Assembly (NCBI GenBank): GCA_017961705.1
Contig: JAGCWT010000113.1
Coordinates: 8,681 to 72,680, forward strand
Source: Treponema sp.
Lineage (GTDB): Bacteria > Spirochaetota > Spirochaetia > Treponematales > Treponemataceae
Length of the DNA: 64,000 nt
Reading direction: 5' to 3'
Numbering within the stretch: the stretch's first letter is position 1; each line of letters starts with the position of its first letter. A program made the translations under genes and the position numbers. Below the pieces are notes generated by a model. It made no database searches and was not told where the DNA came from. It worked only from the letters and a program-made list of their open reading frames with translations. Shown here in pieces: positions 19,223 to 50,153 of this stretch.

Positions 19223-20134
19223 ATGGACGTACACATTTTAGAAATGCCGCTTGATTACGGTGGAAGAAGACACGGCTCTGATATGGGGCCGTCTGCCGTT
19301 CGCCTTGCTGGAATACGGGAAAAAATAGAAAGCTTGGGGCACAAGGTCATAAGCGACCAGAATCCAATAAAAGTTACCGCGCAGGAATTTGCAGACATTG
19401 GCACGAACCCCAAGGCAAAATACCTTGAACCTATTGTTGATGCGTGTACGCTTCTTGCTAAGGAAGTTGAAGATGCCGCTTGCGACGGAGAGTTTCCCCT
19501 TGTTTTTGGCGGCGACCATTCAATAGTTTTGGGAACGCTTGCGGGGCTAAGTTCATTCTATAAGAAAAAGAACCTTAGGCTTGGAGTTTTGTATGTGGAT
19601 GCCCACGGAGACTTTAACACTACAGAAACAAGCCCTACCGGAAACATTCACGGCGAATGTCTTGCGGCCAGTGCGGGCTACGGACTTCCGGAACTTGTGA
19701 ACCTTTACCACGAGGGGCGCAAGGTTGACCCTGCAAACATCTGCTTTGTGGGCTTGCGTGACTTGGACAAGGGCGAAAAACTGCTCATGAAAGAAGCCGG
19801 AGTTACGGCCTTTACAATTAGCGACATAGACCGTATTGGCTTTGACCAGGTTCTAACAAAAGTAAAGCTCTTCTTTAAGACCCGCTGCGACGTAGTCCAC
19901 ATTAGCTTTGACATGGACTCCCTTGACCCTTCAATTGCTCCCGGTACCGGTGTGCCAGTCCCCGGCGGCCTAAATTACCGCGAAGGCCTCCTTTTAATGG
20001 AAGAAATGTGCCAGCTGAACATGGTAAAATCCATGGAAATTGTAGAAGTAAACCCCATCCTTGACGTTCGGAACCAGACAGCAATCATGGCGGTAAACCT
20101 GGCAGCTCGGCTTTTGGGGGAGACTTTGTATTAG
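19223..20134 (+). CDS. rocF: Arginase
   Basis: GGDHS, DAHGDFN, SPTGNIHG, SFDMDSLDP, PGTG, VEVNP. ATG 19223 lies 7 nt after TATGAT, so it is probably leaderless. Confidence 0.95.
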   Translation: MDVHILEMPLDYGGRRHGSDMGPSAVRLAGIREKIESLGHKVISDQNPIKVTAQEFADIGTNPKAKYLEPIVDACTLLAKEVEDAACDGEFPLVFGGDHSIVLGTLAGLSSFYKKKNLRLGVLYVDAHGDFNTTETSPTGNIHGECLAASAGYGLPELVNLYHEGRKVDPANICFVGLRDLDKGEKLLMKEAGVTAFTISDIDRIGFDQVLTKVKLFFKTRCDVVHISFDMDSLDPSIAPGTGVPVPGGLNYREGLLLMEEMCQLNMVKSMEIVEVNPILDVRNQTAIMAVNLAARLLGETLY

Positions 20135-20235: not shown

Positions 20236-20349
20236 AAGCGCCACACACAAGGCCTTTAAGGCAGCAGAAAAAGCTTTCGGATTGGAAAGCAAGTGCCGCA
20301 AATAATGTATTCACAAAGAGTGGCTTATTGTATATAATGTTTTAACTCT

Positions 20350-21864
20350 ATGAAATACACTGTTTTAGATTATCTTGAAGCAACCTCAGAAAAATATGCG
20401 GATAAAACGGCTTTTGCGGATGTGCAAGAGAGCGTTAATTGGAAAGATTTTGTAAAAGATGCAAAGGCACTGTCTTCTTTTTTGGAAAAACATTTTGACC
20501 CAAGGACGGCAGTTCCTCTTGTAACGGAAAAATCCGTTCTAACACTAAAGCTGTTTTTTGCGGCACTGTACGCGGGATGCTTTTATTCATTTGTGGATGC
20601 GACTTTCCCGGATGAGCGCCTTCTTTCCATGATTTCAACTCTAAAAGCAAAGACTCTCGTTGTGGACCGTAAATTCCAGAAAAAGATAGAAGGTCTTGGA
20701 TGCGACTGTAAGATTATTTATACGGATGATTTATTAAAGGAAGTAAAAGAGGCGAATGTTCCTTATAATCCTGCCCGACGCAATCAGATTGTAGACGTTG
20801 ACCCTGTTTATGCAAACTTTACCTCCGGTACAACCGGTATGCCAAAAGCGGTTCTTGTAAACCACCGCAACGTTGTTGATTTTATTTCCTGCTTTGCAGA
20901 GGTTTTTGACATTCAAAGCTCAGAAAACCTTGCAAACCAGGCTCCTTTTGATTTTGATGTTTCGGTTAAGGATATTTTTACCGCAGTCTTTACTGGTGCC
21001 GCAGTTCATCTTGTTCCAAAGGCATTTTTCTCTTTTCCAACAAAGCTCCTTGACTATCTTGAAGAGCGCGAGATTACCACAATCATTTGGGCTGTTTCCG
21101 CAATGTGCATAATTTCTACTCTGGGTGGCTTTAAGTACAAAAAACCGCTTACCCTAAAAAAGATTATGTTCTCCGGAGAAGTCATGCCGGTTAAGCAGCT
21201 TCGCATTTGGAAAGAAAATGTGCCCGATGCAAAATACATAAATCTTTACGGTCCAACCGAAATCACATGCAACTGTACCTATGCGGAAGTTCCACAGTCA
21301 ATTGGAGAAGATTATGTTTTGCCGATTGGCATTCCTTTTCCAAATGAGCGCGTCTTCCTGCTGGACGAAAACGATGCGGTCATTACCCAAGCAGAAAAAA
21401 CTGGAGAACTTTGCGTAAGCGGTTCTTGTGTTGCACCAGGCTATTACAACAACAGCGAGCGTACGGCACAGGCCTTTGTCCAGAATCCGCTGAATGCCTC
21501 TTACTTTGAGCGCATTTATCGTACCGGTGACTTGGCAAGCTACGGCAAGGACGGTTTGCTTTATTATGTTTCCCGCAAAGACACCCAGATTAAGCACATG
21601 GGCCACAGAATAGAGCTTTCCGAAATTGAGGGAGCTGTAGAAAAGATTTGTTCAATAACAAGAGCCTGTTGTATTTTTGCACAGAACAAGATAAGCGCTT
21701 TTTATACAGGACAGGAAACGGATAAAAAAGAAATCGTTACGGCTTTAAAAACTTCGCTTCCGGTTTATATGATTCCAAGTAATTTTATTTTTATAGAAGA
21801 ATTCCCACTTACAAAAAACGGCAAGGTGGACAAGAGGGCATTGGAGGCAAAACTAAATGGTTAA
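20350..21864 (+). CDS. Stand-alone amino-acid adenylation enzyme (DltA-like)
   Basis: FTSGTTGMPKAV, FDFDVSVKD, NLYGPTE, GELCVSG, YRTGDL, QIKHMGHRIELSEIE, PLTKNGKVDK. Confidence 0.92.
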   Translation: MKYTVLDYLEATSEKYADKTAFADVQESVNWKDFVKDAKALSSFLEKHFDPRTAVPLVTEKSVLTLKLFFAALYAGCFYSFVDATFPDERLLSMISTLKAKTLVVDRKFQKKIEGLGCDCKIIYTDDLLKEVKEANVPYNPARRNQIVDVDPVYANFTSGTTGMPKAVLVNHRNVVDFISCFAEVFDIQSSENLANQAPFDFDVSVKDIFTAVFTGAAVHLVPKAFFSFPTKLLDYLEEREITTIIWAVSAMCIISTLGGFKYKKPLTLKKIMFSGEVMPVKQLRIWKENVPDAKYINLYGPTEITCNCTYAEVPQSIGEDYVLPIGIPFPNERVFLLDENDAVITQAEKTGELCVSGSCVAPGYYNNSERTAQAFVQNPLNASYFERIYRTGDLASYGKDGLLYYVSRKDTQIKHMGHRIELSEIEGAVEKICSITRACCIFAQNKISAFYTGQETDKKEIVTALKTSLPVYMIPSNFIFIEEFPLTKNGKVDKRALEAKLNG

Positions 21865-23059
21865 CGATGAATTCATAAAATCATGTGCGCAGAAATACGG
21901 CACACCGTTTTATCTTTTTGACTACGATGCCTTGCTTTCCCGCGTTCAGAAAATAAAGGAAATGCTGCCTTCAAATTCACGGCTCTGCTATGCAATGAAG
22001 GCAAACCCATTTTTGCTTGATGCACTAAAAGAAGACACAGATCTTTTGTTTGAGGTTTGCTCTCCGGGTGAACTTTCTGTTTGCGAAGCCGTAAAAGTAA
22101 ATCCAGAACAGATTGTATTCTCCGGTGTTGTAAAAACCAAGCAGGACATTGAAAGGGCCTACAATCTTGGTGTTGGAACAATCACGCTGGAATCTTTTTT
22201 GCATGCAACTTTTCTTGAGCAAGTTGTAAAAGCTTCTGCCAATCCTCATCCTCAGGGAATAATCGTGCGCCTTACAAACGGCTGTCAGTTTGGTATGAAC
22301 GAGGAATGCGTAAGAAAATCAATTGCCTTGCTTAAGGACTTGCCCGGAATAAAAATTCAGGGAATACATTTTTTTACCGGTACGCAAAAGAAGATGAAGA
22401 AGGTTGCAGAGGAAGTTGCTTTTATCCAAGACTTCTGCACGGAACTGCAAAAAGAATTCAACATCAACTTTGAGCGCATTGAATATGGCCCGGGTCTTGC
22501 CTTTGACTATTTTTCTCCAGAAGATTATGCGCAGAACTTTAGCGACCTTGAAGAATTTTCTGCAATGATAAAGGACAGCCCATTTTTCTGGGTTGTTGAA
22601 AGCGGACGCTATGTTGCCTCTTCCTGTGGAACTTACGTAAGCTCTGTAATGGACTTAAAACAGAATGCAGAAGTTCCCGCCCTTTTTATTGATGGCGGAA
22701 TAAACCACGTAAACTATTACGGCCAGATTATGGGAATGAAAAAGCCTCCCATTCATCTTGTAAAAACAAATTCATCACAAAGCATCCAGGGCATTTCAAC
22801 AAGCAACGGCTACACAATTTACGGCTCTCTCTGCACAACCGCTGACATCATCACCAAAGAATATCCCTTTGAATCCCAACCCGGTGTAGGAGACCTGCTT
22901 TCGTTTGCAAACATAGGCGCATATTCCGTTACAGAAGGAATCTATCTTTTCCTAAGCCACCCCCTGCCCAAAATCTTAAGCTGCCAAAACGGCACAGAAA
23001 AACTCCTGCGTGATTCTGTAGAAAGCTGGCCGCTAAATACGAATGGTGATGCAGAATGA
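21857..23059 (+). CDS. PLP-dependent group IV (LysA/BtrK/VinO-like) decarboxylase
   Basis: YGTPFYLFD, YAMKAN (PLP lysine), HFFTGTQ, ESGRY, GSLCTTAD, GAY; overlaps the A-domain stop. Confidence 0.88.
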   Translation: MVNDEFIKSCAQKYGTPFYLFDYDALLSRVQKIKEMLPSNSRLCYAMKANPFLLDALKEDTDLLFEVCSPGELSVCEAVKVNPEQIVFSGVVKTKQDIERAYNLGVGTITLESFLHATFLEQVVKASANPHPQGIIVRLTNGCQFGMNEECVRKSIALLKDLPGIKIQGIHFFTGTQKKMKKVAEEVAFIQDFCTELQKEFNINFERIEYGPGLAFDYFSPEDYAQNFSDLEEFSAMIKDSPFFWVVESGRYVASSCGTYVSSVMDLKQNAEVPALFIDGGINHVNYYGQIMGMKKPPIHLVKTNSSQSIQGISTSNGYTIYGSLCTTADIITKEYPFESQPGVGDLLSFANIGAYSVTEGIYLFLSHPLPKILSCQNGTEKLLRDSVESWPLNTNGDAE

Positions 23060-24405
23060 AAGGAAAAAAAAGAATTTTTTTGTTTATGATTAAACTTTTA
23101 GTTTTTTGTATTGTTTTTTATATTCTAAATTTAATTTTGGCATTTGCGCTCAAGATTGACTCAAATTCGTATACACGCTTGATTTTTCATGAGTTGCATC
23201 AGCAAAAAAATATAGATGTCTTGATTTGCGGGGCAAGTCACGTGAGCCATGGTTTTTACTGTGCTCAAGCGGATGAAATTTTGGGCAGAAATACTTTTTG
23301 TGCCGGAACACCCAACCAGCCAATAGATGCTACTTATGCAGTAATTCAAGAAGCAGCCTCGCAATGTCCAGTTCGTCATGTTTTTCTTGAAATGGATTTT
23401 GCTGCTGCCAAGGGCGATGTTTTTAAAGAGCGCGATGGTTTAAGGGCAAATTATCTTGTGTCAGATTATCTAAAAAATAAGAAAGTAAAATTCAATTACC
23501 TTAAGGATGCGTCTGGGGCAAACCTATATTTGAATTCCTTGCTGCCACTGGGGAAAGAAAAATCCATAGACCTAAATCCGATTGCCGTAATAAAGAATTT
23601 AAAGTCCAAACTGACAGGGCAGTACTACAAGTATGATTTTTCCTCTGCAGATGATTATGTAGGGAAGGGCTGTGTCATGAAGACGGACTTTATAGAAAAT
23701 GGCTCCTATTGCTCAGATGGAGAAAAGCCAATTGCTGTAAAAAGCATTGGTGCTGATTATAAAAATACGGTAAGAAAAATAGTCAAATTTTGTGAACAAA
23801 ACAAAATATCTCTTACTTTTTTTTCGATGCCATGCAGTGATTTTTATCTTGCAGAGAAAGGAAACTATGATGAGTATTATGATTTTGTAAAAGACTTTAC
23901 ATCTTCCATGGGTTATGAATATTATGATTTCAATCTTTGCAAAGATGAACATCTTCATCTGGAGGATGTAGATTTTAGTGATGACAACCATTTTTCAAAA
24001 ACAGGAATTATTAAATTTACAAATGCCTTCTGCGAATTTTTCTACGGCAATTATGCATACGATGATTTAGCGTTGAAAAAATCAGATTGGTTTTATGATT
24101 CATATTCGCAAAAAACAAATGCTCAGCCAGAAAGACTCTATGGTCTTGAACTAAAAAAATCTCGGGCCTCAGACGGTTCTGCACAGATAAAAATTATTCC
24201 GCTAATAAATCATGGTGACAGTTCGACTGTGGCCTATGAAGTGTCTGCTGAGCTTAAAGACAGCAAAACTATTGTGATTCAACAAAAAAGTGCAAACGAT
24301 ACAATTTCTTTGCCGACAAATGCTGAAGGTAAAATAAAAATAAGTGCATGGTTTAATGGCAAGTGCCTTAATCATGTGGAAGAATATTTCAATACATCAT
24401 TGTAA
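23056..24405 (+). CDS. Membrane-anchored SGNH-type (DltD/AlgJ-like) acyltransferase
   Basis: N-terminal TM; ICGASH block I and DDNH catalytic motif. Confidence 0.7.
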   Translation: MKGKKRIFLFMIKLLVFCIVFYILNLILAFALKIDSNSYTRLIFHELHQQKNIDVLICGASHVSHGFYCAQADEILGRNTFCAGTPNQPIDATYAVIQEAASQCPVRHVFLEMDFAAAKGDVFKERDGLRANYLVSDYLKNKKVKFNYLKDASGANLYLNSLLPLGKEKSIDLNPIAVIKNLKSKLTGQYYKYDFSSADDYVGKGCVMKTDFIENGSYCSDGEKPIAVKSIGADYKNTVRKIVKFCEQNKISLTFFSMPCSDFYLAEKGNYDEYYDFVKDFTSSMGYEYYDFNLCKDEHLHLEDVDFSDDNHFSKTGIIKFTNAFCEFFYGNYAYDDLALKKSDWFYDSYSQKTNAQPERLYGLELKKSRASDGSAQIKIIPLINHGDSSTVAYEVSAELKDSKTIVIQQKSANDTISLPTNAEGKIKISAWFNGKCLNHVEEYFNTSL

Positions 24406-24416
24406 AGGATACAAAA

Positions 24417-26042
24417 ATGAACTTGTTAAATTTTAAATCCTATTCTTTTGTATTCTTTTTAGTGGCATCATTGCTTTGTTATTATATAGCTCCTAAAAAG
24501 GTACAAAAATACATTTTGCTTGTAACGAATGCGATCTTTTACTTTTTCTCTGGACCGCTGAATTTTATATTCATTTTATTAACTGCAGCTTCTACTTTTT
24601 TAGGTGCCAAAAAGGTTTTTGGCCTGAATTTTTCGGTTAAAGAAAAAAAAGCCGGAGGCATGCAAAAGGAAGAGCTAAAAGATTACAAGCTTTTTGTCCA
24701 GAAAAAAAAGCGGCATGTGCTTGTCCTTATGATTCTGATAAATTTTGGAATCTTGTTTTTCCTAAAATATTGGAATGCAATAGCTACTTTTTTGGATGCA
24801 TATATTAATGCAGATTTATCCTTTTTAAAATTTGGAACTGCTAAAACACTTTTACTGCCTCTGGGTATTTCTTTTTATACATTCCAGACCATTGCTTATT
24901 TTATGGATGTGTATAATGCAAAGTACGAAGCAGAACATAGTTTTTTACAGTATGTCTTGTTTGTGTCTTTTTTCCCTCAGCTTGTTATGGGGCCGATAAA
25001 CCGTTATGATGCACTTGGCAAGCAGCTAAAAGAAGAACATAAATTCAATTTTGGGAATATTAAGCATGGAACACTTTTAATACTTTTTGGTGCGGTAAAA
25101 AAATATTGTATTGCAGATCTTCTTGCAGGGCGTATTTCCTCTGTTCTTGATCACGATTACCCGAATCTTCCTGGACTTTTTATTGTAATTGGCATATTAA
25201 GCTATGCAATTTATCAGTATGCTGATTTTTCCGGGGGAATAGACATGGTGCTGGGATTTGCAAAAATGTATGGGCTTGAAATGTCTCCTAATTTTCGCCA
25301 ACCATATTTTGCGGTTTCTCTTGCAGACTTTTGGAGACGGTGGCATATTACACTTGGTACGTGGATGAGGGATTATGTGTTCTATCCCTTTGTTCTTACA
25401 AAATCAATGCAGAATTTTTCCAAGCGCTTTATGAGCAAAAAGACAGAATGGGGAAAACATCTTGCCCGAACCGTGCCTGCAGGAATAGCAAATATCTTGG
25501 TTTTCCTTTTTGTAGGAATATGGCATGGGCCTGAATTCCACTTTGTTCTTTGGGGCTTGTACAATGGCCTTGTAATTGCATTAGGTGACTTCTGCAAGCC
25601 TGCCCTTGAAAACATTGACCAAAAACTTCACATTCCCATAAATTCTTTTGGATGGAAGGTGTTCAGAATTATTCGTACATTCATCATTGTAAATGTTGGC
25701 GGATATTTTGACAGGATTGTTGACGTACCAAAAAGTTTTTTGTATTTAAAGCGAACTTTTGCGAATTTTGGAAGCCTTGCCTTACTTAAGGATGCAGATT
25801 ACATGAAATCAATTTTTGGAAGCCTTCGCTATGTGGAAAGCGAGATTACACTCATTTTTGTTTCGCTTATAATAGTGTTCGTGGTAAGTATCCTGAAGGA
25901 ACGAAAAATAGATGTTTGTGAAACAATTCAAAAGAAAAACATTGTCCTCCGCTGGAGCGCATATTATATTTTGATGTTGCTTCTTTTACTTTCATTATCT
26001 TTCGCTCCAGGAAATCCGGTGTTTATGTATGCACAGTATTAG
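24417..26042 (+). CDS. MBOAT family O-acyltransferase (DltB/AlgI-like)
   Basis: LPLGISFYTFQ, FFPQLVMGPI, YADFSG, NFRQPY, FWRRWHITL, GIWHG; C-terminal FMYAQY. Confidence 0.95.
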   Translation: MNLLNFKSYSFVFFLVASLLCYYIAPKKVQKYILLVTNAIFYFFSGPLNFIFILLTAASTFLGAKKVFGLNFSVKEKKAGGMQKEELKDYKLFVQKKKRHVLVLMILINFGILFFLKYWNAIATFLDAYINADLSFLKFGTAKTLLLPLGISFYTFQTIAYFMDVYNAKYEAEHSFLQYVLFVSFFPQLVMGPINRYDALGKQLKEEHKFNFGNIKHGTLLILFGAVKKYCIADLLAGRISSVLDHDYPNLPGLFIVIGILSYAIYQYADFSGGIDMVLGFAKMYGLEMSPNFRQPYFAVSLADFWRRWHITLGTWMRDYVFYPFVLTKSMQNFSKRFMSKKTEWGKHLARTVPAGIANILVFLFVGIWHGPEFHFVLWGLYNGLVIALGDFCKPALENIDQKLHIPINSFGWKVFRIIRTFIIVNVGGYFDRIVDVPKSFLYLKRTFANFGSLALLKDADYMKSIFGSLRYVESEITLIFVSLIIVFVVSILKERKIDVCETIQKKNIVLRWSAYYILMLLLLLSLSFAPGNPVFMYAQY

Positions 26043-26051
26043 AGGAAAAAT

Positions 26052-27614
26052 ATGTCTATAACATCAGCAATTTTTATTTTATTCGTGTTGGTAACAGGTA
26101 TTGTCTACTATACTGTTCCAAGCAAAAAACGATGGGTTGTCATTTTATGTGCGGGTATTTTGTTTTATGCATATTCAAGCATAAAAACTTTATGCTATTT
26201 TGCTATAACAATTTGCATAACTTGGTTTTTAGCAATTCTTATGCAAAAAAGACAGGAAAAATATGACGTTCTTCTTTTGGTTGCAAAAGATAAAACTGAG
26301 AAAAAACAGCTTAAAGCAAAATGTAAGAAGCAGAAAAAACTTATTTTGATTTCTGCTCTTTTATTTGCATTTGGTATCCTGGCTGTTTTTAAATATTTTA
26401 ATTTTGCTGTGTTACAAATTTCTGCATTGTTTGGTGTACCAAAGGAAAGCTATAGGCCTGTTCGTTTTTTGATTCCTCTTGGAATTTCTTTTTATACGTT
26501 TACAATTACAAGTTATCTTTTTGATGTTTATTATAATAAAATTAAAGCTGAGAAAAACTTTGCTCATTATGCGCTTTTTGCAAGTTATTTTCCCTCATTG
26601 ATTCAAGGTCCCATAAACAGATTCGGTAAAATGAAAGCAGAGTTTTTTGAGAAAGAGCATCCTTTTGTTTTGGAGAACGCTCAGTTTGCATTGCAGAGAA
26701 TTCTTTGGGGATTCTTTAAAAAGATGGTAATTGCAGATAGAGCAGCTCAGATTACGGATTATGTTTTTGGAAATTATGCACAACTTCCATGGTATATTGT
26801 TTATTTTGGACTTTTTATGTATGCAATACAGCAATATGCTGATTTTGCAGGTGGAATTGACGTAGTGATGGGAGTTTCGGAACTGTTTGGGATAAGGATG
26901 CAGGAAAATTTCAATCAGCCGTATTTCTCAAAGTCCTTAGGTGAATTTTGGAGACGATGGCATATAAGCCTGGGACTTTGGATGAAAGATTATATTTTTT
27001 ACCCTCTTTCACTTTCAAAGACTATGCTAAATCTTGGCAAGAAATTGAATGAAAAGTCAAAATATTTTGCAAGAGTCATCCCTTCTTGCATAGGTAATTT
27101 AATAGTTTTCTTTATAGTCGGTATATGGCATGGGGCAGAATGGCATTTTGTGGTTTATGGACTTTTCCATGGTGGTATTATTGCATTTTCTGTATTAATG
27201 GGCGGTGTGTATAAAAAAGGAATTTCATTTTGCAAAATTAATGAACAGGCGCATTGGTGGTGCTGTTGGCAAATAGGAAGAACATTCTTCCTTGTTATGT
27301 TTAGCGGAGTATTTGATTATGTTGTAGATATGAATCAGTCTTTTGGAATGATAAGACAAATGTTTGATTTTAAGAACACGTGGCTAATTAGTAATTGGAA
27401 TTTGACTTTGCAATCTTATTCGCAATACATTATTCCGTTTGGGCTAGTTTTTTTGTTATTAGTTAGTTTTATAAAGGAAAAGGGGATTGATATAAGAAGA
27501 AGAATTTCTGCTTTGCCATTATTAGCAAGGTGGACAATATATATTTCCTTGATATTTTCAATTCCCCTACTTCAATCTACAGAAACGGCAGGTTTTTTAT
27601 ATGCACAATTCTAA
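26052..27614 (+). CDS. Second MBOAT family O-acyltransferase
   Basis: IPLGISFYTF, YFPSLIQGPI, NFNQPY, FWRRWHISL, GIWHG; C-terminal FLYAQF. Confidence 0.95.
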   Translation: MSITSAIFILFVLVTGIVYYTVPSKKRWVVILCAGILFYAYSSIKTLCYFAITICITWFLAILMQKRQEKYDVLLLVAKDKTEKKQLKAKCKKQKKLILISALLFAFGILAVFKYFNFAVLQISALFGVPKESYRPVRFLIPLGISFYTFTITSYLFDVYYNKIKAEKNFAHYALFASYFPSLIQGPINRFGKMKAEFFEKEHPFVLENAQFALQRILWGFFKKMVIADRAAQITDYVFGNYAQLPWYIVYFGLFMYAIQQYADFAGGIDVVMGVSELFGIRMQENFNQPYFSKSLGEFWRRWHISLGLWMKDYIFYPLSLSKTMLNLGKKLNEKSKYFARVIPSCIGNLIVFFIVGIWHGAEWHFVVYGLFHGGIIAFSVLMGGVYKKGISFCKINEQAHWWCCWQIGRTFFLVMFSGVFDYVVDMNQSFGMIRQMFDFKNTWLISNWNLTLQSYSQYIIPFGLVFLLLVSFIKEKGIDIRRRISALPLLARWTIYISLIFSIPLLQSTETAGFLYAQF

Positions 27615-28602
27615 AAAAATTATTATGGCAGTTGTTTTTTGTGTTCTAGTTATTTTATTAAATTCTCTTTTTAATTATATTTTTATACCTCCGTATTATG
27701 CACAAAATGTTATAAGAGATTTAAATAAGCAAAAAGATATTGAATTGTTAATAATAGGGGATTCTTTAAGCCGCTCTGCCTATGATACAAAAACGATAAG
27801 TAGCAGTTTGAATATAAATGCATTTAATTTGAATCAGACCGGCTGTAATTTGGAAACAGAACTTTTACTATTGGAATACACTTTGGAAAAGCATAAGGTA
27901 CAGACTGTAATTCTAAATTGGGATACAGATACTGTTTTGCAAGAGAACAATTTAGTGCAAAGTTATTATACAGAATTGTTAAGAGTTCTGGATGGGCTAA
28001 AATATAAGATAAGAATTTTTCCAAAAACTTTTGAATTGCCTTGGACAAATGCTTTTATATATTGGTCAAATATGTTTTCGCATGAATTCTTAGAGATTAT
28101 TAAAGTAAAACAATCAGATTTATATAAGAAGGGAGACGTTGTGATTTTCCACCCAGAAACAGCCCCTAGGGTTTATTTGGGCCAAGGGGCCTTTGCATAC
28201 AGAATTTTGAAGCAGAGAACTGCAGATTTTAAATTTTCAGATGAGAATAGAGATGACATTTTTTTGTATTTTATGGATGAGAAAAATAAAGAAATTGTAA
28301 ATGAAATTAAAGATTTGTGTAATAAAACCAATACTAATTTGATATTTATGATGCAATCACTTCCTTTAAGTATAAGGGATAATTCCTTAACCTTAAAAAA
28401 ATATTCAGAGGACATGAAAAATTTTTTTTCTTCAATGGGAATAAAATTCGTTGATGCAAATTTTATTGAGGAGTTTAACAATAGCAGGGATGATTATTTA
28501 TTTAGGGATGCAGGAGGTCATTATTATATTAATGGCACAAAATCTTATACAGAAGACTTTTGTAATTGGTATAAAAAACAGCCAGACTTTAACAAAAAAT
28601 AA
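27601..28602 (+). CDS. Second membrane-anchored SGNH-type acyltransferase
   Basis: N-terminal TM; IIGDS and FRDAGGHY. Confidence 0.65.
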   Translation: MHNSKKIIMAVVFCVLVILLNSLFNYIFIPPYYAQNVIRDLNKQKDIELLIIGDSLSRSAYDTKTISSSLNINAFNLNQTGCNLETELLLLEYTLEKHKVQTVILNWDTDTVLQENNLVQSYYTELLRVLDGLKYKIRIFPKTFELPWTNAFIYWSNMFSHEFLEIIKVKQSDLYKKGDVVIFHPETAPRVYLGQGAFAYRILKQRTADFKFSDENRDDIFLYFMDEKNKEIVNEIKDLCNKTNTNLIFMMQSLPLSIRDNSLTLKKYSEDMKNFFSSMGIKFVDANFIEEFNNSRDDYLFRDAGGHYYINGTKSYTEDFCNWYKKQPDFNKK

Positions 28603-28656
28603 GTAAATTAATTCTGTGAAAGTTGATTTATACCAGATTATTTGTTAAAATAACTT

Positions 28657-29847
28657 ATGCTGAATTTTCTTTATGACCTTACAGCTACACAGCCAACCCC
28701 CGATAGTAAATTCCATGGAGCAGGAACATATGGGGAAATTGTATTTTTGAAGTTGCTTCAGGTTTTTGATGCACAAAAAGTTATTTTTTTTATAGCATAT
28801 GATTCAAAGCGATATATAAATGAAGAACTTTTAAATGCTGCAGATAAATTAAATTTAACATTTCTTGATATACAAAAAGAATCTCCAAAAGAAATCTGCT
28901 CCAAATATAAAATTGACCGTTTTTATTCTGCCTTGCTAGATGAATCAATTCCATGGAAGTTTGCAAATGCTCAAGTCATAACCACGGTTCATGGTTTAAG
29001 AGGTTTGGAAATGCCATTGGATAAAATTGTGTTAACTTATGATAGATCTGTAAAGGCGAGAGTTAAAGATTTCTTGAAATTGTACATTTTTAATAAGCGG
29101 CAAATTGCAAAAATTTATAAAGGCTACGAAAGATTTTTTGTAAATGATTATAAAATTATCACTGTCTCAAATCATAGCAAAGCTTCTATAATGTCTTTTT
29201 TTTCAAAAATAAAAGATGAAGATATAAAAGTATTTTCCAGCCCTACTTTTGATCAATTAAAAGATGATTCTATTCTAGAAATGCCATTACTAAAAACAAG
29301 TAACCTTGCGGTAAAAAAATATTTTATCCTTACAAGTGGAGCTAGATGGATAAAAAACAATATGAGGGCAATTCTTGCGTTTGATGATTTGTTTATAGAA
29401 AATGCCCAATTGTTAAAAGATTTTAAGGTTGTTATTACAGGAGTTCCAGACAAGACAGTATTTACGCGGTATATAAAAAACAAAGATAAATTTGTATTTT
29501 TTGATTATATAGAACGAGATTTGCTTGCTGGTTTAGAAGCAAATGCATATGCCTTTATTTATCCGTCATTGAATGAAGGTTTTGGATATCCTCCAGTTGA
29601 ATCAATGAAATATGGAGTACCTGTTGCTGCTAGTGGAACATCTTCAATACCTGAAATTTGTGGAGATGCAGCTTTATACTTTGACCCATATTCAATTAGT
29701 GAAATAAAAAATAGAATTATTCAGTTATGTAATAAAGAAATATATAATAGCTTTGTGGAAAAAGCAAAATCACAATATAATAAAGTATCTATGATGCAAA
29801 AAAAAGACTTGGATAGTATGGCTGAATATTTATTGGAGATAAAATAA
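28657..29847 (+). CDS. Glycosyltransferase family 4
   Basis: TTVHGLR, FIYPSLNEGFGYPPVESM, SIPEICGDAALYFDP. Confidence 0.92.
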   Translation: MLNFLYDLTATQPTPDSKFHGAGTYGEIVFLKLLQVFDAQKVIFFIAYDSKRYINEELLNAADKLNLTFLDIQKESPKEICSKYKIDRFYSALLDESIPWKFANAQVITTVHGLRGLEMPLDKIVLTYDRSVKARVKDFLKLYIFNKRQIAKIYKGYERFFVNDYKIITVSNHSKASIMSFFSKIKDEDIKVFSSPTFDQLKDDSILEMPLLKTSNLAVKKYFILTSGARWIKNNMRAILAFDDLFIENAQLLKDFKVVITGVPDKTVFTRYIKNKDKFVFFDYIERDLLAGLEANAYAFIYPSLNEGFGYPPVESMKYGVPVAASGTSSIPEICGDAALYFDPYSISEIKNRIIQLCNKEIYNSFVEKAKSQYNKVSMMQKKDLDSMAEYLLEIK

Positions 29848-30708
29848 ATGATATTGTTCTCAGTTTTGATTGCAAATTACAATAATGCAAAATTTCTTTC
29901 TGAATGTCTCACTTCAATCAAAAAACAGACTTATTCAAACTGGGAAATTATTTTTGTGGATGACTGTTCAAAAGATAATTCAATTGAGATAGTTGAAAAT
30001 TTTTCAAAAAACTCTGCTAACTTGGTAAAAATATACAAAAATGATACAAATCACGGTTGTGGCTATACAAAAAAACGTTGTATGGAATATGCTAACGGTC
30101 AAATTTGTGGTTATCTTGATCCAGATGACGCATTGGCTGATGATGCAATTGAGTTAATGGTTAAGGCACATGAAAAAAATCCGTTGGCAAGCGTAATAGG
30201 TTCACGACGTTTTTTTTGTAATGACAAATTAAAAGTCGTAGATGTTGCTCCGAGTTTGGCACCAAGAATTAAAAATTTTAAGAGTCAGCTAGAAACACCT
30301 TTCTATATTACACATTTTGCATCCTTTAAAAAAGAGGCTTATGATAAAACGGGGGGTCTTGATCCATACATGAAAAGAGCTGTAGATCAGGATTTGTATT
30401 TAAAACTTGAAGAACAAGGTTGCGTAGATTTTGTTGATAAGCCTCTTTACTATTATAGAAATTCATCAAATTCAATCTCCTTAAATAAGAACTATTATAA
30501 AGCGACTGCTTGGCATGTTTATGCAGTTGTAGAAACTTGTAAAAGGCGGAGAGTGTCGTTTGACGATTACTGTTATCTCTTAAAGCAAAAGAAAAATAAA
30601 CAAGAGAGGTTTGTTGATTTTATTACACATCCATTAACACTTCTAAAGAGTTTTATTATACGAAAAAGGCATATTAATGCATATAAAAAAGAGAGTAGAA
30701 GGAAGTAA
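29848..30708 (+). CDS. Glycosyltransferase family 2
   Basis: SVLIANYN, VDDCSKD, YLDPDD, VDQDL. Confidence 0.92.
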   Translation: MILFSVLIANYNNAKFLSECLTSIKKQTYSNWEIIFVDDCSKDNSIEIVENFSKNSANLVKIYKNDTNHGCGYTKKRCMEYANGQICGYLDPDDALADDAIELMVKAHEKNPLASVIGSRRFFCNDKLKVVDVAPSLAPRIKNFKSQLETPFYITHFASFKKEAYDKTGGLDPYMKRAVDQDLYLKLEEQGCVDFVDKPLYYYRNSSNSISLNKNYYKATAWHVYAVVETCKRRRVSFDDYCYLLKQKKNKQERFVDFITHPLTLLKSFIIRKRHINAYKKESRRK

Positions 30709-30764
30709 GTTTATTTTAAATGATATTTTGTAAAACAAGTCTTGAAAAAATTGAGTTCCAGAAA

Positions 30765-31757
30765 TCAAATTTCAAACATTGATTTCTGAGGGAGTGTTTG
30801 TTCAAAGGTTTGAATAATTCTCTTCATTTTTTCATTAATATCAATGTCAGAATCATTGATAACTATTTGTTTATAGGTTCTATCTCGAATTGACTTGCAC
30901 AAATCATCAATGTTGGCTGAGTCTAGTCTATAAAAATGTCGTCTTCTTCGTAAATTTATGGGAGTAAAATTTCCTTTGCATAATTGCCAGTAGCGGAAAA
31001 TATATTGGTTGATGTCATTTATACTGCGGAATCTATTTTGCATAGCAATATCTAATTCGTCTTTGCAATTTGCCCATACGTCCTCGAAAATTTTTTTTGT
31101 AAAACAATTTGCCATATGGAAATCTATGAAGCCAGGAAACTTTTGTAGATAGTTTAATACAAAATTGAAATAATTCAGTTTTCCGTAGATGGGGTTAAAC
31201 CATTTGAAAAAATTTTTTGAAATGACTTGTTTTTTTTTAAAATTTTTGTTTATAGCATTTATCGTATTAAATATTGTGTTAAGTTGAGGTGCTTTTCCTG
31301 AATCTTTTACTTCCAAAATTGCACAGTCACAAGGTAGACCACATTTAAAAAAATCTTGTGGTGACATAAAATCTGTAATGTATATATCATCATTAAAATA
31401 AACGAAATGATCTTGTAAACTTGGTATTTTATGTAGACAAAGTTCTATAGGTATTGAAGAAAAAACAGGTAAATATTCTTTTGGAATATAATCAGTATGT
31501 TTTACTAAATGTAATTTTGAACAATCCAAATTAAGCCATTCTGGTTTCTGTCCACAGGTAACAAAATGGACTTTATTAACCCAAGGAGCAAATTTTTCAA
31601 CTCCGCGAAACCAATAACGTAAAAGGCCGTAATCTCTAAATTCAAAAGATTTTTTCTTTTTCCCTTCTGGTGCGAATTTATTATATTCTTCAATCCAATC
31701 TGGATCAGATCCATCAACCCATGGAATTATAAAGTCAATTGGAAATTCTTTTTTCAT
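30765..31757 (-). CDS. Stealth-family hexose-1-phosphate transferase
   Basis: IDFIIPWVDGSD (CR1), LRYWFRGVEKFAPWVNKVHFVT (CR2), FVYFNDD, INDSD. Confidence 0.92.
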   Translation of the reverse strand: MKKEFPIDFIIPWVDGSDPDWIEEYNKFAPEGKKKKSFEFRDYGLLRYWFRGVEKFAPWVNKVHFVTCGQKPEWLNLDCSKLHLVKHTDYIPKEYLPVFSSIPIELCLHKIPSLQDHFVYFNDDIYITDFMSPQDFFKCGLPCDCAILEVKDSGKAPQLNTIFNTINAINKNFKKKQVISKNFFKWFNPIYGKLNYFNFVLNYLQKFPGFIDFHMANCFTKKIFEDVWANCKDELDIAMQNRFRSINDINQYIFRYWQLCKGNFTPINLRRRRHFYRLDSANIDDLCKSIRDRTYKQIVINDSDIDINEKMKRIIQTFEQTLPQKSMFEI

Positions 31758-31779
31758 TTTTTATAATCCAAATTTTTTG

Positions 31780-32625
31780 CTAATCTAATGAGTAATAAAA
31801 ATCTGTAGTTATTGTATCAACACCCATTTTAAAAAGCCTTTCCCATACTTCTTTCCCACCATATGTAAAGGCATTTACTTCAAGTCCGTTTTCATGGCAG
31901 AGATCAATGGTTTTTTGTGAGACATTTTCACCTGTATGGTATGCGTTAACACCTAGTTGGGCGCACATTGGAATAGCACCAACTATGTTACCTTTATCTA
32001 TATATCCAATTTTTACTTTTTTGGAATAATTACGTATTAACCAGAGTGAAAAAGGATTTCCAGAGGAGATAACAACTCTGTCTTCAAGACCATATTTTTT
32101 TATGAGTTTAACAGCTTTTTTTTCTATATCGGTATAGTATAATTCATAGCTTTTAATTTCTATATTTGTGATGATATTAGTATCTTTTACCCACTGGCAA
32201 TACTCCTCTAAAGATGGAATATGTTCAGGTTTTGTCAGGTTTTGAGTGTTTTTTTTGATTTTCATTTTTTGAATTTCTGCAAACGTACAGTCTTTGAAAT
32301 CTCCAAAGCCATAAGCTTTTTTGTCGGTGGATTCATCATGAGAAATTACAAGAACACCATCATAAGTTTCATGAATATCCAATTCAATGCCTTTACATCC
32401 AAGACGGGCTGCTTCCTTAAAAGCAGACATTGTATTTTCTGGATATAAAGAACTAATCCCTTTGTGTGCAAAAAAGAAGTTCTTTTTATTCAGCTGCATG
32501 AGGTCCTGCTTTGATTCAAGGGGATTATCAGAATTTACATTTGCTTTTGTTGAGGCACATGAGAAAGTAAGAAGTAGAATGACTGCGCTAGAAATAAGAG
32601 AAAAAGAATTTGTAATTTTTTTCAT
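31780..32625 (-). CDS. Glycerophosphodiester phosphodiesterase lipoprotein
   Basis: Lipobox TFSC; AHKG, PENTMSAF, IELDIH, HD, NIEIK, GVDTITTD. Confidence 0.88.
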   Translation of the reverse strand: MKKITNSFSLISSAVILLLTFSCASTKANVNSDNPLESKQDLMQLNKKNFFFAHKGISSLYPENTMSAFKEAARLGCKGIELDIHETYDGVLVISHDESTDKKAYGFGDFKDCTFAEIQKMKIKKNTQNLTKPEHIPSLEEYCQWVKDTNIITNIEIKSYELYYTDIEKKAVKLIKKYGLEDRVVISSGNPFSLWLIRNYSKKVKIGYIDKGNIVGAIPMCAQLGVNAYHTGENVSQKTIDLCHENGLEVNAFTYGGKEVWERLFKMGVDTITTDFYYSLD

Positions 32626-34076
32626 AAAACCTTTCCTTTTAATATTTGTAAAATTTGAAAAGCCGTTTTATTTCGAAATAAAAGCGAAAAAAACGTATAA
32701 GCTATTACACCTACTATTATACTCAATAATGTAGTTATAACAAGGGAAATTTCTCTCATTTCAAGAAAATTATAAACAAAATAAACACATAAAGACATTA
32801 GTAAAGTTATGAAAGCAACTTGAATTATAGGAAGAATGATTTCTTTTTTGAAAAACCATTTGCTTACATAGGCAAGTCTTATGGAAAACATTACGCATTG
32901 TGCTATAAAAGTTGCAAGTGAGGCTCCCCAAACGCCTTTTGTCGGAATAAGTATTGCATTGAAGATAATATCTGTTATGCAGGCGGCAATTTGGGAAGTC
33001 AAAAGAATTTTCTCTTTATGCAGAGGAACAATTATAAGATTGTTAACCATAGAGTTTATTGCATAAAGAATAATCAGTAAAGACATGATTTGCATGGATC
33101 CCTGTGCTGGCAAGTAATTTTCACCGCAGAAAATTATAATTACAGGTTTACTTAATATTGTAAGACCGAGAGCGGCAGGAAAAGCAAAGAAAGATGTCGC
33201 TCCAGCAGATTTTTTTATCAAGTTTTTGAATTCTTCTTGTTTGTTACTGTCAAAATATGAGGTTCCTCGTGGCATTAACGTTGCTAATGAACTTTTTATT
33301 AAACTGGATACCATAGAGGAAACTTTATTTGCTGCTGTATAATAACCAACTGCAGCATTTCCTATAATAAGGCCAACCATTGTAGTATCAATCATGGAAT
33401 AAAGTTTTATAGCGAAATTATTTCCAAAGAAAACTAAAATACCTTTTAAGTGATGAATAGGGTGAATTTCAGTTTTTTCAAATATATTTACATATTTTCG
33501 TGTGTATATAAGATTATAGATATTTGAACCTACAGAAGAAAAAACACCAATGATTGCATATATTATATAATCTTTTGGACTGTGAACAAATGTAAACAAT
33601 GCAATAAGAGAAATAATTTGAAATAATATGGAGCGTAATGTTATATATTTTTGGTCTTCTTCTGCTACAAAAAGCCAGCCAAAATCCATGGTATTAAAAA
33701 GCAATTTTGTGCCTATTAGAATAATTAAAAGTCTATACTCAGATAACCGTGATATGAAAAAGATTCCGGTGAACAGTAAGGTGGCAGATATAAGTGTTGA
33801 GAATAATGTTAAAGCTATGATTTCTCGTACAAATTGATTTAATTTTGGTTTATCATTTTTTAATTTTGTTGCCTCACGAGTGGCATATGTTGATATACCT
33901 AGTGCTGCAAGCATCAAAAAATAATCAACAATTGAATTTGCAAAATTTACTTTCCCTATGTTTTCTGGCATGAGAACTCGAGAAGCATAGGGGAATGTTA
34001 TTATAGGAAATGCAATATTCATGAAAGATCGGATAAATCCGTATAATGCATTTTTCTTTAAGGATTTTGTTTTCAT
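32622..34076 (-). CDS. wzx: Wzx-like polysaccharide flippase
   Basis: SLKKNALY, FPIITFPYASRVL, VGYYTAA; many TM segments. Confidence 0.9.
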   Translation of the reverse strand: MKTKSLKKNALYGFIRSFMNIAFPIITFPYASRVLMPENIGKVNFANSIVDYFLMLAALGISTYATREATKLKNDKPKLNQFVREIIALTLFSTLISATLLFTGIFFISRLSEYRLLIILIGTKLLFNTMDFGWLFVAEEDQKYITLRSILFQIISLIALFTFVHSPKDYIIYAIIGVFSSVGSNIYNLIYTRKYVNIFEKTEIHPIHHLKGILVFFGNNFAIKLYSMIDTTMVGLIIGNAAVGYYTAANKVSSMVSSLIKSSLATLMPRGTSYFDSNKQEEFKNLIKKSAGATSFFAFPAALGLTILSKPVIIIFCGENYLPAQGSMQIMSLLIILYAINSMVNNLIIVPLHKEKILLTSQIAACITDIIFNAILIPTKGVWGASLATFIAQCVMFSIRLAYVSKWFFKKEIILPIIQVAFITLLMSLCVYFVYNFLEMREISLVITTLLSIIVGVIAYTFFSLLFRNKTAFQILQILKGKVL

Positions 34077-34106
34077 TCGGAACTTCCTTAATTGTAAAAG
34101 GTGAGG

Positions 34107-35123
34107 TTATTTTTCCCACTCGGATTTTATAGGAAATACTTGTTCAAAAAATGAAGTAGCGTACTCTACTTCGTCATCAGGAATAGCATTTAGGCATATT
34201 GATAAAGGTTTTATGGTTTTTAATTTGTCTTGTAAATCCTTTATTTTTTCAGAATAAATCATATTTCTATTTTCCTTTATTGAAAATGATATTTTAAAAA
34301 CCTTAAAAAATTTCCTAATTATTCTAATTAATATAGGAGAAATATTTGCATAATGAAATTTATATTTTAATATATATATCATCTCATATTGAAAAATAAT
34401 TCTGTTAATATCTTTTCCATCGCGAAATGGATGGATATTGGTTTCTAAAACCTCGGGATATTTCAAAAGTATTTTTTCAAAATCGGATTTTAATAAAGAT
34501 GTGAAACAGTGATTTAAAGTATATCCTGGTATTATAAGATGATTTTTTTTGCAAAATAGATCCCAAGAATTGTAAATTGTTAACCTATATTTTTTATCAG
34601 GACCAGAAATGCTAGGGACACGATCGAGTGAGAAATTAAAAATTTGTCCTTTGTTCCCATTCACCCAAACAATAGGATTTCCTTTTTTGTCAAAGTAATC
34701 TTTTCTTTGAACTGTATTGAAAAAAATAAAATCATCATTCGCATAAAGAAAATGCTCTGAAAGGTTTTTAATTTTGTGTATATAGAATTCAATTACGCAA
34801 GAGTTAAAAGTGGGAAGTATGTTTTTAGGAATAATATCTTTGTGATCTATGATTGTTAATCTACTATTTTCCTTAAGCCACTTGGGCTTTTGATTATCTG
34901 TAACAATATATATATGATTTATCCATGGAGCAAATTTTTGGACAGAACGTAGCGAAAATTTTAGTTCATTATGTTCAATGTAACGAACATTTCCATTTGA
35001 TTGCTTATCAAAAGAGATATTTAATTTTTTTTTCAGTTCATTTTTTTTATTTGCAAAATTTTTATCACTGCCATCACACCATAAATAAACTAAGTCTACT
35101 GGAAAATCGTATTGTTTTTTCAT
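34107..35123 (-). CDS. Second Stealth-family phosphotransferase
   Basis: VDLVYLWCDGSD, ELKFSLRSVQKFAPWINHIYIVTD, PTFNS, FLYANDD. Confidence 0.9.
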   Translation of the reverse strand: MKKQYDFPVDLVYLWCDGSDKNFANKKNELKKKLNISFDKQSNGNVRYIEHNELKFSLRSVQKFAPWINHIYIVTDNQKPKWLKENSRLTIIDHKDIIPKNILPTFNSCVIEFYIHKIKNLSEHFLYANDDFIFFNTVQRKDYFDKKGNPIVWVNGNKGQIFNFSLDRVPSISGPDKKYRLTIYNSWDLFCKKNHLIIPGYTLNHCFTSLLKSDFEKILLKYPEVLETNIHPFRDGKDINRIIFQYEMIYILKYKFHYANISPILIRIIRKFFKVFKISFSIKENRNMIYSEKIKDLQDKLKTIKPLSICLNAIPDDEVEYATSFFEQVFPIKSEWEK

Positions 35124-44134: not shown

Positions 44135-45379
44135 TCAGCTGAGCTTTTGCACTGTTTCTATCATGAAGTCGGCGGTGCGTTTTCCGGCTTCGCCTATGTG
44201 CTGCCAGGCCTGGGCTTTTGCGCTTGCACGGCGCTGCTTTAGTTCCGGGCTGTCGGAGGCGTTTTGGATTACGTCCTTTATGCGGCCAAAGTCTTTTTCT
44301 TCCAAAAGGATACCGCAGTTTTTAAGTGTCTGCATTTCCCAGAGGCCTTCGTAGTTTTCACCGTGGATGTCGTAGGCATCGTAGGGCAGGAGGTCCATTT
44401 TGCTTGCGGCATAGATAACAGGCTTGTCGCAGAGGAAGGTGTAGTCGAAGATGATGCCGGAGAAGTCGGAGATCATGATGTCGGCTTTTTTTAGCGAATA
44501 GATGTTGTCGCGCTCGTAGTCCCAGGTGACGTTTGCCTTGTCCTTGTAGCGTTCCGTAAGTTTGTTAAGCATTTCCGCTTCTGAGATTTTTGACTGCGGG
44601 TGCGGGCGGATTATGATGTTGAACCCTGTTTGGATAAGTGGGTCTAAGAGGCGTTCACCATAGAGCGAAAGGAGGGCGCTTTTTCCCCATGACGGAGAGA
44701 CGAGAACCGTGTACTGGTGGTTTTCTTCGGCTGGTATTTCTGCAATCTTTTTTTGGAGCACGTCCAGGTAGGTGCAGCCTACTGTTACAAGCTCTTTTGC
44801 AGGAAGGTTACGCTGCTTTTCCAGGATGCGTATGTCTTCTCCTGAATAGTCGCCGGTTAGCAAGACGGAATCAAAGAAGTCTAGGCCAAAGAGCCTGTAC
44901 ATTGAAGAGTCGGTGGTTGAATGGAAGATGTGGCAGTAGTGCTTTACGTTTTTGCTGCGCTTCCACTGGTAGACGTTTACGCCGGGCGTTGTGCAGACAA
45001 GGATTCCTGCGCTCATCATGTTGAGTTTTGCATAGGCGGAGTTTCCAGTTCCTATGACTTCCGGTTTTACGTACTTGAAATTCTGGCTAAAAACCGGGTC
45101 TTCGGCGGACGAGACGTAATAGGTGATTTCCGTTTCGCGCTTTTCGAATTCCTGTAGTACAGGGAGGAAGACGTTCCAGTAGCGGCGGTCTTCACAATAA
45201 ATTACGTACTTCTTATATGAAGAATCCTGAATTACACCGTTCTTTTTGCCGGAGATTAGCACTTTTAGTTTAATCCAGACTGCCTTTGAAAGAAAGAACA
45301 GTGTGGTTGCGGCTCCAATCAAGATTGAAAAGAGCATGCTTCCCGTTCCAGGGTCAATATAAAGGAGCATAAGGTTCAT
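44135..45379 (-). CDS. CDP-glycerol:glycerophosphate transferase family (TagB/TagF-like) protein with an N-terminal YIDPGTGS anchor
   Basis: HIFHS, VLVSPSWG, IIRPHPQ, ADIMISDFSGIIFDYTFLCDKPVI. Confidence 0.85.
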   Translation of the reverse strand: MNLMLLYIDPGTGSMLFSILIGAATTLFFLSKAVWIKLKVLISGKKNGVIQDSSYKKYVIYCEDRRYWNVFLPVLQEFEKRETEITYYVSSAEDPVFSQNFKYVKPEVIGTGNSAYAKLNMMSAGILVCTTPGVNVYQWKRSKNVKHYCHIFHSTTDSSMYRLFGLDFFDSVLLTGDYSGEDIRILEKQRNLPAKELVTVGCTYLDVLQKKIAEIPAEENHQYTVLVSPSWGKSALLSLYGERLLDPLIQTGFNIIIRPHPQSKISEAEMLNKLTERYKDKANVTWDYERDNIYSLKKADIMISDFSGIIFDYTFLCDKPVIYAASKMDLLPYDAYDIHGENYEGLWEMQTLKNCGILLEEKDFGRIKDVIQNASDSPELKQRRASAKAQAWQHIGEAGKRTADFMIETVQKLS

Positions 45380-45395
45380 TTTTTATCTTCCTGCT

Positions 45396-47366: not shown

Positions 47367-47427
47367 AGTTTTTTTCTCCTGTATATTTAAGGCATAAAGA
47401 TGCCCTTATATTCTACTCCTATTTTAA

Positions 47428-50151: not shown

Positions 50152-50153
50152 AT

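Follow-up and report, generated by a model that had tools for sequence, protein, structure and literature searches.

Why would a spirochaete carry a set of genes that resembles the D-alanylation (Dlt) pathway of Firmicutes teichoic acids, and why would that set include a pyridoxal-phosphate (PLP) decarboxylase? The question is raised by a 64-kb window (the whole stretch of 64,000 nucleotides that we analyzed) on contig C7 of a metagenome-assembled genome (MAG) of a gut or rumen Treponema (G000, 88% complete). On the forward strand, eight close-packed genes (20350-30708) comprise the six genes of a Dlt-like module followed by two glycosyltransferase genes. The six encode, in order, a stand-alone adenylation enzyme of the non-ribosomal peptide synthetase (NRPS) type (20350..21864, 504 aa), a BtrK-like PLP decarboxylase of group IV, the group with the alanine-racemase fold (21857..23059, 400 aa), a DltD-like SGNH protein (23056..24405, 449 aa), two DltB-like membrane-bound O-acyltransferases (MBOAT 1, 24417..26042, 541 aa; MBOAT 2, 26052..27614, 520 aa) and a second DltD-like SGNH protein (27601..28602, 333 aa). 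The 449-aa protein is the putative partner of MBOAT 1 and the 333-aa protein that of MBOAT 2. An earlier note on this DNA had described the same six packed genes in the same order directly before glycan genes, and this arrangement was confirmed. With start codons taken from the open reading frame (ORF) calls, neighbors among the six genes overlap by 8, 4 and 14 nt or are separated by 11 and 9 nt, distances short enough to be compatible with translational coupling. None of the six genes is disrupted, and each retains its catalytic residues.

The answer to which we give slightly better than an even chance, reading it from the sequences, is that aspartate or glutamate is loaded via its side-chain carboxyl, decarboxylated on a carrier protein, and esterified as a beta-alanyl or gamma-aminobutyryl group to phosphate-rich surface polymers. 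The adenylation enzyme would activate the amino acid at the side-chain carboxyl and join it as a thioester to a 74-aa DltC-like carrier. The BtrK-like decarboxylase would then remove the free alpha-carboxyl on the carrier, giving beta-alanyl- or gamma-aminobutyryl-S-carrier. Each MBOAT would carry this group through the cytoplasmic membrane to the tyrosine in its FxYxxF tail, which would replace the microprotein DltX, and its DltD-like SGNH partner would take over the acyl group on a serine and esterify a surface polymer. An anionic envelope polymer would in this way come to bear cationic omega-aminoacyl esters. The earlier note had proposed such cationic acylation by a Dlt-type exporter, and the proposal is supported in that every computational test run agrees with it and none speaks against it. 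Loading through the side chain is favored because PLP-dependent alpha-decarboxylation requires that the alpha-amino acid moiety be free (PMC11284099, PMC7857480). There are precedents: in the VinN/VinO and FlvN/FlvO systems, 3-methylaspartate or aspartate is loaded first and then decarboxylated on the acyl carrier protein (ACP) (PMC11284099).

The adenylation enzyme matches PF00501 with 199.7 bits (cut-off 29.9) and the amino-acid adenylation domain model TIGR01733 with 311.3 bits, slightly below the cut-off of 317.4. It has the core motifs TSGTTGMPK, FDxS, YGPTE and NGKVDK, and a PDB search placed it about equally far from NRPS adenylation domains (LgrA, GrsA), DltA and the beta-aminoacyl-ACP ligases. 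Residues 200-208 read FDFDVSVKD (nt 20947-20973), and Asp203 and Lys207 correspond to residues 235 and 239 of GrsA; the lysine that the earlier note had placed at the GrsA-239 equivalent of an FDVSVK stretch is indeed there. Read by offsets from the core motifs, the ten-residue specificity code is DVKSMSLCNK. The pattern DVKS[MLI]S[LV]CNK recurs across phyla in 67 of 72 adenylation enzymes of the family, which are 45-65% identical overall, and a code so nearly invariant at such identities implies one shared substrate. The amine-binding Asp235 is kept, which leans toward aspartate bound as a beta-amino acid, and Lys239 occupies the position that, by the Stachelhaus code, binds the side-chain carboxylate in glutamate-activating domains. 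Two features described for VinN and other beta-amino-acid adenylation enzymes are matched by Val236 and Ser301 (PMC11253843). The sequence of the enzyme argues for an acidic amino acid, whichever carboxyl is activated; beta-alanine and gamma-aminobutyrate (GABA) as products are indistinguishable at this level.

A sister clade of loci in Ruminococcus, Oscillospiraceae, Eubacterium and Lachnospiraceae bins (L091-L095, L097) has the order adenylation enzyme, carrier, decarboxylase, MBOAT. Its code is IARSCSQASK or IARACSQASK (L091, L092, L094, L095, L097), lacking Asp235 and having arginine at 239. Such a code recalls activators of a distal carboxyl, for instance the aminoadipate domain of ACV synthetase, and the sister clade may use a different acidic amino acid.

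The decarboxylase matches PF02784 (63.6 bits) and PF00278 (50.2 bits), both above cut-off. In an alignment of 41 sequences, the hallmarks of group IV are invariant: the PLP lysine (Lys48, in AMKANP), Glu248 and Arg251, Cys326 and Asp330 (CxxxD) and Tyr356, of which Glu248/Arg251 in ExGR and Tyr356 in GAY form the phosphate-binding motifs. The group IV assignment made earlier therefore holds. Its best solved relatives in the PDB search are BtrK structures (2j66 and 7ru7, E 1e-30), followed by SbnH and then by diaminopimelate (DAP) decarboxylases. BtrK decarboxylates glutamyl-S-BtrI; together with SbnH, MccE and other enzymes it falls into a clade whose members use conjugated amino acids as substrates (PMC7857480).

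The family is large (265 representative decarboxylase clusters at E <= 1e-30), and a scan of one genome per species yielded 80 loci from other genomes, a recurrence of the gene set that exceeds chance. In 71 of 75 loci the adenylation gene immediately precedes the decarboxylase gene; 61 of 74 have a carrier gene next to the latter, and 33 of 42 have an MBOAT gene no more than 10 kb away. The succession of adenylation enzyme, decarboxylase and carrier is nearly fixed, and this triad is linked to DltB-like MBOATs and DltD-like proteins. Two family members are unusual. P0150, a metagenomic protein of 1046 aa, fuses the decarboxylase to Ig-like/Rib repeats and a transglutaminase-like core, an odd combination for a cytoplasmic enzyme. 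In a Treponema MAG (GCA_017389745.1) whose operon is 78-91% identical to that of the window, the gene at the start of a contig (L102, 1-1366) has the first ~95 decarboxylase residues swapped in frame for the start of an NRPS condensation domain with HHxxxDG, and the PLP lysine is gone; the fusion may be a real recombinant or an assembly chimera. A scan of viral contigs for the decarboxylase found nothing relevant.

Does the decarboxylase act on the carrier, or before loading? It could convert the free amino acid (aspartate to beta-alanine, or glutamate to GABA), and the product could then be loaded, with the rest of the pathway unchanged. This would give the same end product, and most group IV decarboxylases act on free substrates. 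A predicted complex of the decarboxylase dimer with the carrier reached a median score of 0.31 against a mark of 0.32, which speaks neither for nor against binding. The adenylation pocket points the other way, as Asp235 with the basic Lys239 suits an amino acid that still has its second carboxylate, and NRPS codes for beta-alanine are known to have aspartate at 236. The habitual neighbor of the decarboxylase gene is, moreover, the carrier gene (the 61 of 74 loci above). BtrK, the nearest solved relative, acts on a carrier-bound substrate (PMC7857480), and in the known cases the thioester comes first, VinN even refusing the decarboxylated acid (PMC11284099). We therefore consider decarboxylation of the free amino acid unlikely, though it deserves to be kept in mind.

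The substrate could also be larger. A DAP-type acid might be loaded via one alpha-carboxyl and decarboxylated at its far end, which would give lysyl-S-carrier and lysyl esters. Lys239 could bind the distal carboxylate, and position 239 is generally known to contact the chain end in lysine-activating domains. The clade of the decarboxylase also holds DAP decarboxylases (PMC7857480). The window enzyme is not a LysA equivalog (TIGR01048, 144.2 bits against a cut-off of 297.9), and the genome has a separate lysA-like gene on contig C5, whose product scores 283 bits on the lysA model and is 22% identical to the window decarboxylase. The residue after the catalytic cysteine is an acidic one (Glu) in this lysA-like protein, whereas it is Thr in the window decarboxylase, as in BtrK. 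In the adenylation enzyme, the pocket formed by Met/Leu299, Ser301 and Leu322 is more crowded than generally known lysine and ornithine codes would have it. Lysine is also freely available, and a direct lysine ligase would be simpler. On balance, lysyl esters are improbable.

MBOAT 1 and MBOAT 2 are 34% identical to each other and match PF03062 above cut-off (65.5 and 44 bits), and both keep the conserved histidines in WRRWH and WHG, in agreement with the earlier calls. DltB is their sole relative both in the PDB and among NCBIfam models, with scores on the DltB model TIGR04091 of 149.5 and 170 bits against a cut-off of 375. Both are ~100 aa longer than DltB and end in an FxYxxF acyl-shuttle motif (FMYAQY in MBOAT 1, FLYAQF in MBOAT 2); a tail of this type ends 61 of 65 complete MBOATs of related loci. 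In the Dlt pathway the motif sits on the microprotein DltX; PatA-type MBOATs have it at their own C-terminus, where its tyrosine is auto-acylated (PMC12148441). The window exporters show the combination by which MBOAT-SGNH polymer acyltransferases are recognized, a C-terminal FxYxxF and a separate membrane-anchored SGNH protein with Ser/Asp/His (PMC12148441).

The two SGNH calls could not be supported by Pfam alone, and they stand on other grounds. The 449-aa protein has a sub-threshold match to DltD (PF04914, 16.9 bits against 22.7), and members of its family show sub-threshold DltD and GDSL matches in Pfam. Among 26 homologues from related loci, Gly59, Ser61 and His312 are invariant and Asp309 nearly so, which corresponds to SGNH blocks I and V. 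The AlphaFold model (pLDDT, the per-residue confidence, 90.9) has an N-terminal helix, an alpha/beta SGNH domain and a C-terminal beta-sandwich. Foldseek ranked DltD structures first (6pfx, 3bma and 6o93, probability 1.00; also 7dxm), followed by SGNH esterases; TM-scores against DltD are 0.30-0.38 because of the extra helix and the beta-sandwich. The family profile had no match among PDB sequences even at E 10, so the likeness to DltD comes from fold comparison only. The 333-aa protein has a GDSLS block, is membrane-anchored and lacks the beta-sandwich. It had no Pfam or NCBIfam match and, in a search of 5.8 billion proteins, no close relative but itself; hhalign nevertheless aligned it to the 449-aa family profile over 308 columns with 99.2% probability (E 8e-20), and phmmer on the locus ORFs found weak homologues 3' of MBOAT2-type genes in three loci (L022, L098, L073). 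Predicted fold, Ser/Asp/His residues and profile alignment together identify both as DltD-like SGNH proteins.

The exporters also travel with the triad elsewhere. MBOAT 1 shares 55-62% identity with its counterparts in other Treponema loci, in which homologues of the 449-aa protein adjoin the MBOAT1-type gene. The triad occurs with the MBOAT1/449-aa type in Treponema L004, L006, L015-L018, L021 and L023-L026, and with the MBOAT2/333-aa type as the sole exporter in L019 and L022; the window operon has both types. Two to three tandem DltD-like genes and two MBOATs per triad are found in L026, L055, L081 and L087 (Tractidigestivibacter, Roseburia and one Treponema), and multiplied exporters are thus not unique to the window.

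If the exporters were unrelated to the adenylation enzyme and decarboxylase, both MBOAT/SGNH pairs could be acetyl-CoA-dependent O-acetyltransferases of the adjoining glycan. The operon itself is without a carrier gene, and acyl-CoA is the donor for those MBOATs with a fused FxYxxF tail that have been investigated; apart from Dlt, MBOAT/SGNH pathways accordingly do without a carrier protein (PMC12148441). Against O-acetylation, both MBOAT types adjoin the triad in other Treponema, in Bacillota and in Actinomycetota, their one relative among structures and NCBIfam models is DltB, and no other acyltransferase able to use an acyl-carrier is conserved in these loci. We regard this explanation as quite improbable.

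How close, then, is the module to the Dlt pathway itself (DltA/DltC/DltB/DltX/DltD)? The two share a stand-alone ligase with a small carrier, a DltB-like MBOAT with the invariant histidine, a DltD-fold SGNH protein with Ser/Asp/His, an FxYxxF acyl-tyrosine shuttle and genes for phosphate polymers alongside. Unlike Dlt, the system described here has a PLP decarboxylase between ligase and carrier, the code DVKSMSLCNK with Lys239 instead of a D-alanine pocket, the shuttle fused to the MBOAT C-terminus on extra sequence with no separate DltX microprotein, two exporter pairs, an unlinked carrier gene and a diderm spirochaete as host, and it scores below cut-off on all Dlt equivalog models. Canonical D-alanylation, with a divergent DltA and a PLP protein that supplies D-alanine, would account for the overall Dlt-like logic of the operon, for the PF01168 match of the decarboxylase (31 bits) and for the name alanine racemase that several homologues bear at NCBI, a GenBank name that our analysis does not support. 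It is nevertheless very improbable. Both decarboxylase Pfam domains are above cut-off, the Cys/Asp motif is present, and all 26 PDB relatives listed at E <= 1e-5 are decarboxylases, with no racemase among them. The adenylation enzyme falls far short of the DltA equivalogs (TIGR01734, 275.6 bits against 559.85; NF003417, 288.7 against 476). In DltA, a leucine follows the amine-binding aspartate (D197/L198, Bacillus cereus numbering) and Cys269 selects D-alanine (PMC11253843), whereas the window enzyme, in the code read from core-motif offsets, keeps the aspartate, follows it with Val236 and has Lys239.

The proposed carrier lies elsewhere in the genome. The 64-kb window holds no PP-binding or carrier gene, whereas other Treponema loci have a 73-aa carrier ORF directly 3' of the decarboxylase gene. 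The sole carrier homologue of the genome is P0123, a DltC-like protein of 74 aa on contig C35 (8384-8605, minus strand; in L101, 5382-5606, minus strand), which is 72-74% identical to the operon-encoded carriers of other Treponema. Within the carrier family Ser31, in LDSFD, and a PxNFNS motif are invariant, and P0123 keeps both. The match to PF00550 (19.4 bits) is just below the cut-off of 20.8, and scores on the DltC models are 31.7 (cut-off 68) and 21 (cut-off 52.35). The P0123 gene is isolated and distant from those of its partners. It is flanked by genes for a GntR-family regulator and a CHASE2-domain membrane protein, of which the second lies 15 nt downstream of it. That the carrier gene was lost from the operon by rearrangement and the system is inactive here, as its place between unrelated genes might suggest, has only a very slim chance of being right, given six genes intact with their catalytic residues, an orphan carrier with its invariant serine and PxNFNS, and a close relative (L020) that keeps the adenylation enzyme at 94% and the decarboxylase at 84% identity.

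Side-chain loading followed by decarboxylation on the carrier remains the reading that we prefer, and several observations weigh against it. VinN-type enzymes combine Asp235, a bulky residue 236, Ser301, a beta13-beta14 loop one residue shorter and, for an acidic substrate, basic residues 330/331 (PMC11253843). The window adenylation enzyme has Cys/Asn at 330/331, without the Lys330/Arg331 pair of VinN, and its beta13-beta14 loop shows no visible shortening (there is no gap relative to LgrA); side-chain activation is to that extent a prediction. Glutamate activated in the ordinary way, at its alpha-carboxyl, would suit Lys239 just as well and would leave the decarboxylase without a carrier-bound substrate. 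The characterized MBOATs with a fused FxYxxF tail take their acyl group from CoA, not from a carrier protein (PMC12148441). As the carrier gene is outside the operon, its linkage in this genome is by orthology alone. Finally, the Dlt and lysA equivalog models all score below cut-off, and functions are transferred here by analogy.

Known systems offer parallels. The proposed tethering of an acidic amino acid to a carrier and its PLP-dependent alpha-decarboxylation to an omega-aminoacyl thioester resemble BtrJ/BtrI/BtrK of butirosin and the VinN/VinL/VinO and FlvN/FlvL/FlvO systems of macrolactam starters (PMC7857480, PMC11284099). Those systems feed antibiotic assembly lines, whereas here the acyl group would be handed over to a membrane exporter for the envelope. 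BtrJ, furthermore, is not known to be an adenylation-domain enzyme. VinN differs by the shortened loop and the Lys330/Arg331 pair discussed above (PMC11253843). For the exporters, the parallel is with PatA/PatB and, as generalized in the same paper, with other MBOAT-SGNH polymer acyltransferases such as AlgI-type systems, which likewise have a C-terminal FxYxxF on the MBOAT and a separate SGNH partner (PMC12148441). Unlike the module described here, whose ligase/decarboxylase/carrier triad is genetically linked to the exporter, they use acyl-CoA (acetyl) and have neither carrier nor ligase. Judged by its sequences, the system combines a fused shuttle with a carrier-protein module. A ligase beside a group IV decarboxylase in an exopolysaccharide context is also found in the uncharacterized exosortase A-associated pair TIGR03098/TIGR03099 of Proteobacteria. 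This comparison is one of model scores, and the window proteins score far below the cut-offs (186.5 bits against 592.35 on TIGR03098; 148.8 against 478.45 on TIGR03099). Our literature search found no decarboxylase-containing Dlt-like system, no beta-alanine in teichoic acids, and no teichoic acid or DltA in Treponema. As a matter of chemical expectation, omega-aminoacyl esters should be less readily hydrolyzed than D-alanyl esters.

The decarboxylase family is common in gut Bacillota and Actinomycetota. Its hosts include Lachnospiraceae (Butyrivibrio, Lachnospira, Roseburia), Oscillospiraceae (Gemmiger, Faecalibacterium, Ruminococcus), Clostridium cadaveris and Atopobiaceae (Olsenella, Tractidigestivibacter), together with some bins labeled Desulfovibrio or Paludibacteraceae. 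Within Spirochaetota, only 7 of 401 sampled genomes have the decarboxylase, and all seven belong to one genus. In a quick tree the Treponema decarboxylases form one well-supported clade inside the Bacillota-dominated family; the root of this tree is unreliable, given its long outgroup branch. Presence in a single genus of Spirochaetota suggests import, a conclusion that comes from the distribution and not from the tree, and import from gut Gram-positive bacteria would be the simplest reading of the Treponema occurrence. The full scheme for this genome, in which an imported chemistry works in a diderm by carrier-bound decarboxylation, two self-shuttling MBOAT/DltD pairs without DltX, and esters on two phosphate-containing polymers, seems to us possible at somewhat less than an even chance.

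The two glycosyltransferase genes downstream of the module (28657..30708, plus strand) encode a GT4 enzyme (PF00534, 28657-29847) and a GT2 enzyme (PF00535, 29848-30708). A gap of 54 nt precedes the first and 0 nt separate the two, and they are apparently the end of the same operon. At the other end, a promoter-like site (TTCACA, 17 nt, TATAAT; 20310..20338, plus strand) ends 12 nt 5' of the first ATG of the adenylation gene; it is the best site in the scanned region at 11 of 12 consensus positions, a consensus match only. This site of its own suggests separate transcription of the operon and the arginase gene that precedes it. The latter (19187-20134, same strand, 263 bits on the rocF model and above cut-off) lies 216 nt upstream of the adenylation gene. 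We considered arginase as a member of the pathway and rejected it; the gene adjoins an adenylation gene only here and in the near-identical L020, in no other locus, and probably stands outside the pathway.

On the minus strand beyond the operon lie genes for two Stealth hexose-1-phosphate transferases, a GDPD phosphodiesterase and a Wzx-type flippase (30765..35123, Pfam), and, further on, for a TagF-like transferase, a cytidylyltransferase-aminotransferase fusion and two fusions of YidC with an LtaS-like sulfatase (44135..52847, Pfam and NCBIfam). The first group is part of a capsule-like set, unusual for a treponeme, that also includes a PIG-L deacetylase and a Wzi-like outer-membrane protein (30765-38051, on the minus strand and beyond). 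From their adjacency alone, we infer that the genes at 30765..35123 supply a candidate acceptor polymer. In Treponema L004, L006, L017, L018, L024 and L027, the MBOAT1/DltD-like pair has homologues of the TagF-like and YidC-LtaS genes as immediate neighbors. It is a reasonable guess that the two exporter pairs serve two phosphate-containing acceptors, one the product of the TagF-like and YidC-LtaS proteins and the other a sugar-phosphate glycan made by the Stealth proteins and glycosyltransferases. Positions 24000-36000 of the window have a G+C content of 0.29-0.35 against 0.40-0.52 in the flanks, a drop that fits a foreign or mosaic origin of the glycan genes and of the operon's second half. 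What sets this window apart is its diderm spirochaete host, the presence of two exporter pairs within a single operon, a carrier gene that is not linked to it, and the TagF-like, YidC-LtaS and Stealth genes nearby.

The standard example of bacteria adjusting their surface charge, withstanding cationic peptides and interacting with a host is the D-alanylation of teichoic acids. If the proposed pathway is right, many anaerobes of the gut, rumen and mouth (among them Lachnospiraceae, Oscillospiraceae, Atopobiaceae and one Treponema genus) would decorate their envelopes with a different amino acid. The step that makes it has until now been known from antibiotic biosynthesis only, and abundant gut and rumen bacteria would have a new surface chemistry. 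The MBOATs would be the first that are fed by a carrier protein and have a tyrosine shuttle of their own, and would thereby link the Dlt and PatA/AlgI paradigms. Five purified proteins would suffice for a direct test of the pathway. For Treponema in particular, it would mean that envelope-modification genes crossed from monoderm to diderm bacteria, and it would open an experimental way into the long-unclear teichoic-acid-like glycolipids of treponemes.

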